NCBI RefSeq assembly: GCF_029227855.1
Contig: NZ_CP074356.1
Direction: 5' to 3' (one strand)
DNA from: Escherichia coli
Lineage (GTDB): Bacteria > Pseudomonadota > Gammaproteobacteria > Enterobacterales > Enterobacteriaceae
DNA length: 64,000 nt
Shown here: positions 28,301 through 31,300 of the stretch, one piece after another
Numbering within the stretch: position 1 is the stretch's first letter
Layout of the letters: each line of letters opens with the position of its first letter
Made by a program: the position numbers

Positions 28301-31300
28301 ATCATGTATAAGCAATAAAAAACAGCTTCAGGTAATGAGGAATATCTCAATTTTTAAACATAAAATGCGAATTATTTAGTACAAAAAGTGTACTTCTGAT
28401 GATCTTTCCCTGTCCTTGGCACCATCATTTTTTGACGCTTCAAAAATACTACTACAAGTGAGTTTAGAAAACTCTTTTCCAGATAATTCTCCAGGTTGTA
28501 ATCCTCCGCCGCCAAAAATCCTACTCCCAGGATTTCCATACCTATTTAGAGCATATGAATAGCAATTATTTACGGCAAGATAATACGCATCTGAATTTAG
28601 TTCTCGATTGAATACTGGAGCAGGTTTATCAATTAAGCCCAGCGGATCAATAGAATAGGTTGGATGTATGGAAGCATATACATACTGATTCCACCCGCCT
28701 TCCAGCCCAATCGGATCCTGAGTGATATACCGCCCCTGCAGCGGGTCATAATAGCGGTGGCGGTTGTAATACAGGCCGGACTCCTCATCATACTGCTGCC
28801 CCGGCAGACGGATAAGCTGCTGCAGGTGCTGCGGGTTCTCTTCAGTCAGCAGGTTGTCCCATTCATCATATTCTGCGCACCATTCTGTTGCCCCGTCAGG
28901 GCTGATAAGCGTCAGCGGCAGGCCGCGATAGTCGCAGTGGTAGAGGTGGATTATTCGCAGTGATCTATATGCCAACGTCATCTTATTTTTCATCTACTCC
29001 AACGAGTAGACAAGTTTTTTATTAAACCATTTATACCTTTTACGATTAAATTTTCTTATGTAATAGAGGTGAATAATCTTCCCAAAAATCCATACAAGCT
29101 TTACTTGCATAAAAGAATCCAGCGTCTGATTCATAAGACATAAACTGTGCAATAATAGATAGTTGTATATCTGAAAAATTAAAAACAAAATTCAAAAAAT
29201 CATCGTGATCCCGATACTCAGGACATAAATATTGTTGAATAAAATCGGATTCAAAAACCCAAAAATCATTCTTATTAAACAACGAGGCATAAATATACAG
29301 AGGGATGTAATAGCAGAATACTTTCTCAGGGAGGAATGTAATTCCTAACTCTAAAGCATAAGAGTCATCCTTTATTTTAAAATTGTTGGCTATTTCATTC
29401 CATTGTTTCTTTTGGAAAAAATTATATACAATATCCAGTTCCTCCAGCCCTGTAATATCATTTGAAATATGAGGTAATGGCTGGCATGGGAAATGAATCA
29501 TAAGTTCATCATAGACTGCACTCTCGTTAGAGAAAATTATTTTTTTCATTTTATTAAGCCACTGCAATCAGCTGCTGTTTTATATGCTTTATTCTCTTCT
29601 TCCATATGGGCCTTATCTCCACCACCAAAGCACTGATTATTAATCTGCTTTCTGACCGAAGCGCACGCCAAATTTATCTCGTACCGTCTCAATATTTCTT
29701 TTCTCAGCATCTGAGGAGCGCAAGCTCTAGACTGGTTACATAATCTGTTTTTTTCATTTTGTAAGTCACTCAGGTTCTGGGGACTACAGTTACCACCAGG
29801 ATTTACACCTGACTTATGTTCATCTGTTAATTTGTCGGCTTCTGGATTAACTTTACGGCCATATTGATCTCTGCGTTGTTGCCCACTTTGGATAACACCA
29901 CCTGATGAAAACAAACCGCAACTCATCAGTGCTACAACACTAAGAATTAACGGATTTAACCCTTGTGGGTCTATCTCTGAGATCGGATTTAACGGATACT
30001 GATAAAAATTCCATCCCCCCTTCAGTCCAATCGGATCCTGAGTGATATACCGCCCCTTCAGCGGGTCATAATAGCGGTGGCGGTTGTAATACAGGCCGGA
30101 CTCCTCATCATACTGCTGACCCGGCAGGCGGATGAGCTGCTGCAGCTGATGCGGGTTCTCTTCATTCAGCTGGTTACCCCATTCATCGTATTCTGCGTAC
30201 CACGCTGTTGTCCCTTCCGTGCTGACAAGCGCCAGCGGCAGGCCGCGATGGTCGCAGTGGTACAGGTGGATTTTTCGCGCCGGCGTGTACACCGGGTCCA
30301 TCTGGTTTTGCATCTGCTCCACCGTCAGGCCGCACGATGCCAGCCAGCGGCGGCTTTCCTCGCTCACCCGGTCAGTAAGGATTTCACTTTCCAGCCGGTC
30401 GAGCATCTGCACCAGCACCGGCGGGAACACCACTCTGCCACCGTCTTCGCCGCCGGACTGCTGAAGGGCATCCGCCAGGCTGCGGCGCTGCGTTTTCGCC
30501 AGCTCACCGGTGGCGGTTTCAACTCTGATGAGTGGCGTGAAGCTCCCCGGCTGATAAACCGTCTGGATGCGGGTTCTGTCGTTCTGTATTGTGGTCAGCC
30601 GGTCGCCGTCCCAGCCGTACCAGGTCACTTCCGGTTTCCGTGACAGCGACATCCAGCCCGTCAGGTCCCGTTCACGCCGCCATACCCGTTTTGCCACCCT
30701 GCGGCCCAGCGGGTCGTAAAGATAGCGACTTTCGACCAGCGGCTCTGCATATTGTGTCCGCGTGTAGTGCACCAGCCGGTGCCGGCTGTCGTAATGATAC
30801 CGGTGAGTCCGCTCATCATCCGTGCGGATAACCCCTTCCGGGATGAGGTCGGTTTTCTCTGTCAGCCTGCCGTGACGGTCATACCGGTAAAGATAGTGCG
30901 CGTCACGGGCGATACGGTTATCCGGCCACATGCTGAGGGTGCTGTCCGGGTGCAGCTCCGGGTCGGGCAGGCGGTTGCCTGCCGGGTCCGTGGCATACGG
31001 GATGCGGATATCCAGGTTCGCTGCCGTGGTGTGGACGCCGGTCAGCCTGCCGGTGTCGCTGTAGCTGTAACTCCGGGTCTGGCGCGGGCTGCTGATGCGG
31101 ATGAGTTCGCCGTTGTCGTTCCAGGTGTAATCGCGGTCATACTGCAGGCTGTTCAGGTGCTGGCTCTGTAACTGCCCGGCAGGGGTGTAAGCGGTGGTGA
31201 GTTCATAACGGCCGAAGCTGCGCAGCGTTTCCCGGTGCAGGCGGTCGCGGGTGAAATCCACCAGCGGTGTGTCGCCGAGTTTCATGCCTGACAGCCAGCC

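Follow-up and report, generated by a model that had tools for sequence, protein, structure and literature searches.

The 205-aa orphan open reading frame at 28376..28993 (minus strand, ATG start), located in the 64,000-nucleotide stretch of Escherichia coli DNA that was analysed here and is called the window below, is read as a Rhs C-terminal tip of the rhsC locus that was displaced and has decayed, with a probability of about 0.88. As dead remnants go it is ordinary, a textbook case of tip displacement followed by further decay, and RefSeq already lists it as a pseudogene: in an identical genome, the stretch equivalent to 28376..28960 bears the PGAP pseudogene label 'RHS repeat-associated core domain-containing protein, incomplete, missing N-terminus'. 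Its interest is as a base-resolved example of the loss of a Rhs toxin/immunity cassette. One IS-associated replacement removed both the catalytic half of the toxin and the immunity gene, so that no toxin was left behind without an antidote. The intact tip, found in 41 complete E. coli genomes, is a member of a large unnamed Cys/His family with a confident structure model and a signal-peptide partner, and is a candidate new envelope-acting Rhs effector.

The ORF lies in the rhsC locus, in the interval between ybfA and ybgA, and stands 3' of a full-length rhs gene with an Ntox16 tail and its immunity-like ORF, imm-1, all three on the minus strand. The main rhs (29546..33697, 1,383 aa) runs as core to about 30008 and then continues as its own tail, tail-1. 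The genome NZ_AP045174, which is 99.9% identical, annotates it as 'RHS element core protein', and the tail after its DPQGL motif matches Pfam Ntox16 (PF15523, E 7.7e-13). The imm-1 ORF (29046..29567, with the PGAP start at 29549) matches Pfam DUF6714 with an E of 5.8e-05, and no hydrophobic N-terminus was found in it. From 34500 down to 30008, which covers ybfA and the rhs core, the window is 96.2% identical to the comparison locus L002, where the toxin end and immunity gene missing from the window are present. The segment 28940-29620, which contains imm-1, was found in 243 of 5,426 complete genomes, always with an identity of at least 99%, and the orphan pseudogene follows it in 28 of the 30 records listed.

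Read from its ATG, the orphan consists of 12 non-core leader codons, about 108 core codons, 74 toxin codons, and 11 codons plus the stop from an H-rpt element. The core-derived DNA (28634..28958, delimited by profile matches and DNA comparison) begins at 28958 and ends in the demarcation motif DPLGL at 28634-28648, residues 116-120 of the ORF. Residues 1-120 match the last 119 positions (1143-1261) of the NCBIfam model RHS_core NF041261 (E 2.9e-56) and also TIGR03696 Rhs_assc_core (E 1.3e-22), while the Pfam RHS match (PF03527) covers residues 15-51. After the motif come the first 74 of the 147 codons of a toxin domain, called tail-2 here (28413..28633), which was delimited by DNA comparison with strain 23CRST032 and by an alignment of homologues; from 28777 to 28413 there is not one mismatch to the full-length rhs of that strain. 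The first-pass annotation had described the end of a Rhs core fused to a different, AT-rich tail, and this description holds: the coordinates, length and quoted sequence agree exactly, the main tail is Ntox16 while the orphan tail has no Pfam match and the 205-aa ORF matches RHS on its core part only, and the GC content of the orphan tail is 0.371 against 0.62 in the main core. It had also reported a palindrome before the ATG and no obvious Shine-Dalgarno sequence. The palindrome is real, a 10-bp hairpin with the loop GUUG in the RNA fold (28990..29013, minus strand), but a GGAG is present at 29000-28997 with a spacing of 3 nt to the ATG, and the hairpin's 3' arm holds both this GGAG and the AUG (28993-28991).

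The leader codons belong to an AT-rich spacer between imm-1 and the core fragment (28959..29045, minus strand, GC 0.31). BLAST found no homology of this spacer to L002 or to L004, one of the loci with another H-rpt copy, and the spacer marks the right-hand end of the tail-1/imm-1 cassette that came in. An upstream extension of the ORF was ruled out by an in-frame TAG immediately 5' of the ATG. On the minus strand, the stretch from imm-1 to the ATG showed no sigma-70-like site; the orphan might be expressed through read-through from the rhs/imm-1 operon.

Downstream, the reading frame runs into a defective ISAs1-family element (H-rpt / ISEc1-like; 27435..28412, minus strand), recognised by its transposase profile, a BLAST map and its inverted repeats. 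The terminal inverted repeats are CAGGGAAAGATCA... (at 28412) and ...GATCTTGCCCTG, and the second terminus, at 27435, is the complement of CAGGGCAAGATTA; both ends are common to copies at two other loci. The transposase pseudogene (27501..28268, minus strand) carries a stop within its frame and has lost about 302 bp internally: compared by BLAST with the intact copy at L003 3001-4294, whose ISEc1 transposase is annotated as intact and to which the window copy is 97.6% identical in DNA, it lacks L003 3917-4218. Both pieces of the transposase ORF match NCBIfam transpos_ISAs1 (NF033564) above the cut-off (E 1e-35 and 2.1e-39), and PGAP remarks 'internal stop; missing C-terminus'.

The element does not simply follow the orphan. 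On the minus strand, 28958 to 28413 corresponds to L002 6683-7228, 28415 to 27435 to H-rpt copies at unrelated loci, and 27416 to 26500 to L002 8038-8954. Homology to L002 thus ends at 28413, and homology to the H-rpt copies elsewhere (L003, L004) begins at 28415-28418. Between the right end of the H-rpt and the renewed homology upstream of ybgA lie 18 nt (27417..27434, minus strand, from the BLAST map) that were found neither in L002 nor in L007, the K-12-type locus. The H-rpt of the window takes the place of L002 7229-8037, and these absent 809 bp hold the last 73 toxin codons and the stop, the whole imm-2 gene and 227 bp of spacer. A simple insertion is ruled out, since the window lacks 809 bp that L002 has and the flanks (GCCAAGGA and CTACAACA) showed no target-site duplication; flanks of this kind fit a deletion or recombination. 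The 3' end of the ORF (28376..28411, minus strand), identified by comparison with L002, L003 and L004, is 11 codons plus TAA from the left end of the H-rpt. At another locus the same 11 codons close an unrelated rhs fragment (L003 2723..3040), and the left-end sequence is found in 5,336 of the 5,426 genomes.

This map sharpens three statements made from the sequence at first sight. The H-rpt remnant had been placed about 107 bp downstream, which is true of the transposase ORF (ATG at 28268), but the element itself begins at 28412, inside the orphan and 36 nt before its stop. No immunity-like ORF had been seen downstream, and indeed there is no ORF of any kind between the orphan stop and the transposase remnant ORF. 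The module had been called possibly truncated, and it definitely is: 74 of the 147 toxin residues are left, and the replacement that cut the toxin also took the immunity gene. Neither the C-terminal half of the toxin nor imm-2 was found anywhere in the 64-kb window.

A search across genomes for a full-length rhs that carries this tail and is followed by an immunity gene, as the first-pass annotation had proposed, found such a pair at the same locus. In strain 23CRST032, tail-2 sits on a full-length rhs of 1,391 aa (WP_001605137.1) between ybfA and ybgA, and a 124-aa gene follows. In L002 the toxin stop is at 7451 and the 124-aa gene, imm-2 (WP_000494465.1), at 7436-7810, an overlap of 16 nt. 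It starts with a Sec signal peptide (MFTKLSIAILLAFSAYVHA, predicted to be cleaved before ET), and we regard it as the candidate immunity gene of tail-2. The complete segment, toxin end plus immunity gene, is present in 41 of 5,426 complete E. coli genomes. Among these 41, the annotation listed for five places it under a full-length 'RHS element core protein' and a hypothetical protein, and it lies at the ybfA-ybgA locus in the one genome inspected. The truncated orphan form is present in 242 of the 5,426; strain 7/2 (NZ_CP023820) is one example of this lineage.

These comparisons suggest a history with few steps. The older arrangement would have been the one still intact in other E. coli: rhs core, tail-2 toxin, signal-peptide immunity gene, ybgA. 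Following the published model of C-terminal displacement of Rhs tips (Jackson et al. 2009, PMC2935791), the tail-1 (Ntox16)/imm-1 cassette would have recombined into the core and shunted tail-2 downstream with about 325 bp of core. The defective ISAs1/H-rpt copy replaced 809 bp comprising the toxin end, imm-2 and the spacer, a change observed by comparison with L002. Either the displacement or the replacement could have come first. The DNA that is left encodes a set of Rhs core residues and the N-terminal half of a putative papain-like Cys/His hydrolase domain that keeps the nucleophile Cys. Against the 3' end of the main rhs core in the window (30278 to 30008) the core fragment is identical at 243 of 271 positions, with exact runs of 60 and 31 bp; against L002 it has 17 mismatches, every one within 28953-28778. 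About 10% of its positions differ from both L002 and the main core, so this simple two-step history may be incomplete.

The closest precedent is the orphan rhs-CT/rhsI module (PMC2935791; Poole et al. 2011, PMC3150448; Koskiniemi et al. 2014, PMC3967940). As in those modules, a 3' fragment of the core with a DPxGL motif is joined to an unrelated toxin tip; it is codirectional with a full-length rhs and its immunity gene and stands 3' of them; other strains have the tip on a full-length rhs; and the orphan lacks a delivery domain. Unlike them, the tip in the window is cut after 74 of 147 residues and its cognate immunity gene is gone, which makes it a remnant and not a functional module. The first-pass annotation had called the orphan probably silent, and the sequence agrees with this, as no sigma-70-like site was found ahead of the ATG and the hairpin buries both AUG and GGAG. 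The orphan product is most likely non-toxic and untranslated, and the cell would then have no need of the lost immunity gene.

Such a cassette might be silent and still usable, held in reserve and deployed by recombination with the main rhs core, a reading that we consider very improbable here. The orphan has kept its 271 bp of core homology, and homology of this length with such exact runs is enough for RecA-type recombination. The mechanism has been demonstrated for an orphan of Salmonella LT2, but that orphan is complete and linked to its immunity gene (PMC3967940). A recombinant made from the window would instead carry residues 1-74 of 147, without His104, Arg107 and Lys117, tail-1 and imm-1 would be lost from it as well, and the window has no cognate immunity gene.

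It is likewise highly unlikely that the truncated product or its transcript has been kept for a new role, perhaps as a decoy or regulator, or as an antisense or terminator element of the locus. The ORF is open in all 242 genomes that have it, and on the plus strand the palindrome followed by a T-run scores as terminator-like. Against this, the genomes with imm-1 and with the orphan (243 and 242) are most likely one near-clonal lineage, as the identity of at least 99% in the imm-1 segment indicates, and because of this the conservation of the ORF is uninformative about selection. The region 26500-34500 had no match in Rfam, and the fold energy of the hairpin is unexceptional (z -1.68). The least likely reading is that the 85-residue tail is by itself a small toxin, complete as it stands, whose translation begins with the ATG at 28993, where the frame is open and a GGAG is close by, given that the identical DNA runs on for 73 codons in 41 genomes, that homologues across phyla all reach through the His-containing strands, that the last 11 codons are insertion-sequence DNA which also ends an unrelated rhs fragment, and that an export or delivery domain is absent.

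The Rhs elements of K-12 are reportedly composite, as described by Hill and co-workers. The window resembles the K-12-type rhsC composite with H-rpt (ybfC / ybfQ / ybfL-ybfD) in its ybfA...ybgA site, its distal H-rpt near ybgA and its defective transposase. In the K-12-type locus, however, the right end of the H-rpt is joined inside the imm-2 gene, of which the last 131 nt are left, whereas the left end in the window abuts the middle of the tail-2 toxin, and imm-2 is lost entirely. Roughly 337 genomes have a 3' remnant of imm-2 and nothing else of the pair. Since the junctions differ, the two H-rpt junctions are independent.

In an alignment of 42 homologues of the intact tip with 32-54% identity, C24, P47, H104, R107 and K117 are invariant. 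The window copy retains residues 1-74 with the invariant Cys24 (in NNCYSYA) and Pro47, and with Asp70/Gly71, while H104, R107, D109 and K117 are deleted and the Cys/His pair is incomplete. The AlphaFold2 model of the intact domain has a pLDDT of 90.3 and a pTM of 0.85; in it, C24 starts a helix (24-29) and H104 lies within a strand (102-108). Position 116 and Asp109 are candidates for a third catalytic residue, and C60-C80 and C139-C143 may be disulfides. Its best structure matches, which are weak, are papain-like, NlpC/P60 and CHAP hydrolases, and Foldseek found no significant match to the model in the PDB. Searched against Pfam (Tox-PL1, NLPC_P60, CHAP and Peptidase_C39 included), the intact 147-aa tail had no match at E <= 10, and imm-2 had no match either. 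Sequence searches of the PDB, with a single sequence and with a profile, gave chance-level hits only (E 0.017 for a beta-glucosidase, E 0.76 for a designed protein).

A word-indexed protein search gave only five relatives, and the family was revealed by an exhaustive HMMER search. It comprises 825 representative clusters at 50% identity, mostly C-terminal domains, with the signature NNCYSYA ... PQPG ... DYHWYRQD-G-WSHK-G. The carriers are Rhs toxins, lipoproteins and LamG proteins, and Rhs_assc_core precedes the domain in seven of the nine long members checked.

The partner genes bear on where the toxin acts. The Sec signal peptide encoded by its E. coli partner gene makes it probable that the intact tail-2 works outside the cytoplasm, and the genes 3' of two metagenomic homologues encode one or several N-terminal hydrophobic segments. 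The idea of a periplasmic target is based on three downstream genes, with a fourth homologue (L009) to the contrary; the ORF 3' of that homologue has no hydrophobic N-terminus, which weakens the proposal that all immunity partners are exported. The intact domain would be a thiol hydrolase, with cell-wall peptides as a possible substrate. Among the closest known systems are the type VI amidase effectors with periplasmic immunity proteins (Tse1/Tae1-Tsi1, Tae3-Tai3), and NlpC/P60 or CHAP peptidoglycan hydrolases. Tox-PL1 and other papain-like polymorphic toxin domains (Zhang et al. 2012, PMC3482391) and the C39-like protease toxin Cpe1 (PMC12136450) resemble tail-2 as papain-like toxin domains at the extreme C-terminus of Rhs proteins, and the 'NC...H' signature of Tox-PL1 resembles the NNC...H of tail-2, but the Pfam models of this group are unmatched by tail-2 even at E 10. 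Cpe1 cleaves GyrB and ParE, and envelope targeting is not described in that paper (PMC12136450), whereas the partner gene of tail-2 is exported.

It is possible, if rather doubtful, that tail-2 is the founding E. coli example of an undescribed and very widespread family of Cys/His hydrolases that act in the envelope and are neutralised by exported immunity proteins. As a separate matter, H-rpt elements may have disarmed this module at the rhsC locus repeatedly and independently. A weak Pfam match to DUF7689 appears in one (E<=0.001) to six (E<=0.1) of the 42 homologues, and a literature search found no papers on DUF7689. Matches of the model in the AlphaFold DB suggest that eukaryotic secreted proteins, such as an 'insoluble matrix shell protein', may carry the tail-2 domain as well.

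The window's locus is the E. coli rhsC site, with the gene order kdpFAB, ybfA, rhs, then ybgA, phrB, dtpD (annotation of NZ_AP045174, 99.9% identical to the window); every gene of the locus is encoded on the minus strand. The main rhs (29546..33697) encodes 1,383 aa, and its attached tip, tail-1 (29546-30007), matches Pfam Ntox16 (E 7.7e-13). It is followed by imm-1 (29046-29567, minus strand), an immunity-like ORF of 167-173 aa with a weak DUF6714 match, in which a hydrophobic N-terminus was not found. Next comes the orphan ORF (28376..28993, minus strand, 205 aa), present exactly as the first-pass annotation quoted it. 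Its interpretation there, as the end of an Rhs core fused to an AT-rich tail, is supported and can be made precise. Residues 1-120 match positions 1143-1261 of 1261 of the NCBIfam RHS_core model (E 2.9e-56) and also Rhs_assc_core (TIGR03696), residues 15-51 match Pfam RHS (PF03527), and GC content is 0.371 after DPLGL versus 0.62 in the main core. The claim that no immunity-like ORF follows also holds: between the orphan stop and the transposase remnant ORF (start 28268) there is nothing that resembles an ORF. PGAP labels the ORF in NZ_AP045174 a pseudogene, 'RHS repeat-associated core domain-containing protein; missing N-terminus', and the feature after it a defective ISAs1 transposase, ybfD. 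The orphan is of a kind already known, here in decayed form, and RefSeq already flags it as a pseudogene.

The window was compared with three loci: L002 (the same locus in strain 23CRST032), L003 (an intact ISEc1 beside another rhs fragment, NZ_AP040898) and L004 (K-12 rhsB with its H-rpt, an ISAs1-family element). Read along the minus strand, ybfA and the rhs core (34500->30008) are common to L002 (96.2%); tail-1, imm-1 and an AT-rich spacer (30008->28959) occur only in the window's lineage; the orphan core fragment and toxin part (28958->28413) correspond to L002 6683-7228; 28415->27435 matches H-rpt / ISEc1 copies; and the region upstream of ybgA (27416->26500) corresponds to L002 8038-8954. 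The orphan segment differs from L002 by 17 mismatches, all within its first 181 nt, with zero from 28777 to 28413. The left end of H-rpt is fixed at 28412 because its terminal inverted repeats, CAGGGAAAGATCA... and ...GATCTTGCCCTG, are common to copies at unrelated loci. The segment map and this end position make the orphan ORF a four-part chimera on the minus strand: a spacer-derived leader of 12 codons with an in-frame TAG just before it, about 108 core codons to DPLGL (28634-28648), 74 toxin codons, and 11 codons plus TAA contributed by the left end of H-rpt. In L003, an unrelated rhs fragment ORF (2723-3040) ends in the same 11 H-rpt-derived codons, so the H-rpt left end repeatedly gives a C-terminus and stop to truncated rhs ORFs. 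The window's own H-rpt (27435-28412) is dead: its transposase has an internal stop at 27912-27914, and about 302 bp of the intact ISEc1 (L003 3917-4218) are missing, with the junction near 27500-27510. The 18 nt past its right end (27417-27434) match none of the compared loci.

What the orphan has lost can be read from L002, where a search for the tail on a full-length rhs succeeded. There tail-2, the orphan's toxin domain, is the attached tip of WP_001605137.1 (3276..7451), and past ...SKNDGAKD it reads on as LDNGSCPSGYHKAQLFIRPHNFIGMGGDYHWYRQDANGEWSDKQGVGAIRFRGKDPLPPIDYPEKCGTICLPN. A 124-aa gene (7436..7810, WP_000494465.1) overlaps the toxin stop by 16 nt, encodes a typical N-terminal Sec signal peptide (MFTKLSIAILLAFSAYVHA|ET), and is the candidate immunity gene, imm-2. 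The suspected truncation is therefore real: in the window, H-rpt stands in place of L002 7229-8037, a segment with 73 codons of the toxin and its stop, all of the candidate immunity gene, and a 227-bp piece of spacer. Simple insertion of H-rpt is rejected, since this segment was replaced and the flanks in the window carry no target-site duplication; the junctions instead point to an IS-associated deletion or recombination. Neither the toxin C-terminal half nor imm-2 was found elsewhere in the 64-kb window.

Only one element is moderately new: the family of the parent toxin domain is large and has no name. Neither Pfam, up to E 10, nor a sequence search of PDB chains gives a match to the intact domain of 147 residues; an exhaustive HMMER search finds it in 825 representative clusters (E <= 1e-3), C-terminal in most of them. 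In 7 of 9 long members checked it directly follows Rhs_assc_core, and in one long member an M23 peptidase-like region. Among 42 aligned homologues (32-54% identity to the query), C24, P47, H104, R107 and K117 are invariant, and N23, Y25, Y27, A28, G48, G52, D70, G71, P81, D102, Y103, W105, Y106, D109, G112, W114, S115 and G119 nearly so. AlphaFold2 gives a confident model from this alignment (pLDDT 90.3, pTM 0.85), in which a helix begins at C24 and H104 belongs to a beta-strand, a predicted papain-like arrangement. Intact tail-2 is probably a divergent papain-like Cys/His hydrolase (probability about 0.7). That the E. coli protein acts in the envelope has roughly even odds, the grounds being that its partner carries a signal peptide and that two metagenomic homologues have partners that are exported or in the membrane; a fourth example (L009, the locus of another homologue) does not fit. 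Some family members weakly match Pfam DUF7689. AFDB50 relatives of the model, by structure and sequence, include eukaryotic 'Insoluble matrix shell protein' entries (corals, Acrasis), other metazoan and algal proteins, an archaeal protein and a viral-metagenome protein. Locus L006 (1-7977), from metagenome contig Ga0620986_00559, is a long Rhs array: besides a main rhs and Imm44 it has at least four rhs fragments, and a small ORF comes after each of three of these. One fragment carries a complete tail-2 homologue (P0008), which is overlapped by 16 nt, as in L002, by the gene for a 154-aa multi-pass membrane protein; other fragments have GH-E/SUFU and Tox-HDC tips.

The window copy keeps the nucleophile Cys, but the half of the fold with the His is gone, and activity as an enzyme of this type is ruled out. 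The orphan ORF also lacks a delivery domain, and no sigma-70-like site was found before it on its strand. The palindrome reported directly 5' of its ATG is real: it forms a 10-bp hairpin whose 3' arm holds both the AUG and a closely spaced GGAG. On the plus strand (28993-29010) a T-run comes after the palindrome, and the site has an intrinsic-terminator-like score for antisense transcription. Orphan and main rhs share 271 bp of core homology, including a 60-bp exact run, so main-orphan recombination as described in Salmonella (PMC3967940) is mechanistically possible; in the window's lineage a recombinant would be an Rhs with a dead tip, nothing more. The best explanation of the orphan is that the tail-2 tip was displaced, as in the C-terminal displacement model (PMC2935791) and as for orphan modules (PMC3150448), and that an H-rpt-associated deletion decapitated it, in either order.

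Across 5,426 complete E. coli genomes, the complete toxin-end-plus-immunity segment occurs in 41; in each of the five listed, the segment is annotated as part of a full-length 'RHS element core protein' and as a hypothetical protein. In 242 genomes the orphan is truncated just as in the window. The stretch holding imm-1 (28940-29620) is found in only 243, always at >=99% identity, and the orphan pseudogene comes next in 28 of 30 matches listed; the tail-1/imm-1/orphan arrangement is therefore most likely the mark of a single near-clonal lineage, and the orphan's apparent conservation is uninformative on selection. In about 337 further genomes, the final 131 nt of imm-2 and the spacer are all that is left of the module. 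One of these was inspected at its K-12-type rhsC locus (L007, from NZ_CP029369; locus positions 3470-3722): there the H-rpt right end ...CTTGCCCTG is joined straight to the imm-2 interior and the surviving 131 nt adjoin ybgA, apparently a second, independent H-rpt junction. From the census and this junction, the tail-2/imm-2 module looks like an old resident at the distal end of the rhsC-site Rhs element, eroded at least twice by H-rpt-linked events with differing junctions. P0003, a partial E. coli protein of 175 aa, shares its orphan core variant and boundary with the window but has a different leader, a hint that another cassette has preceded the orphan in other strains and that upstream cassettes were swapped more than once.
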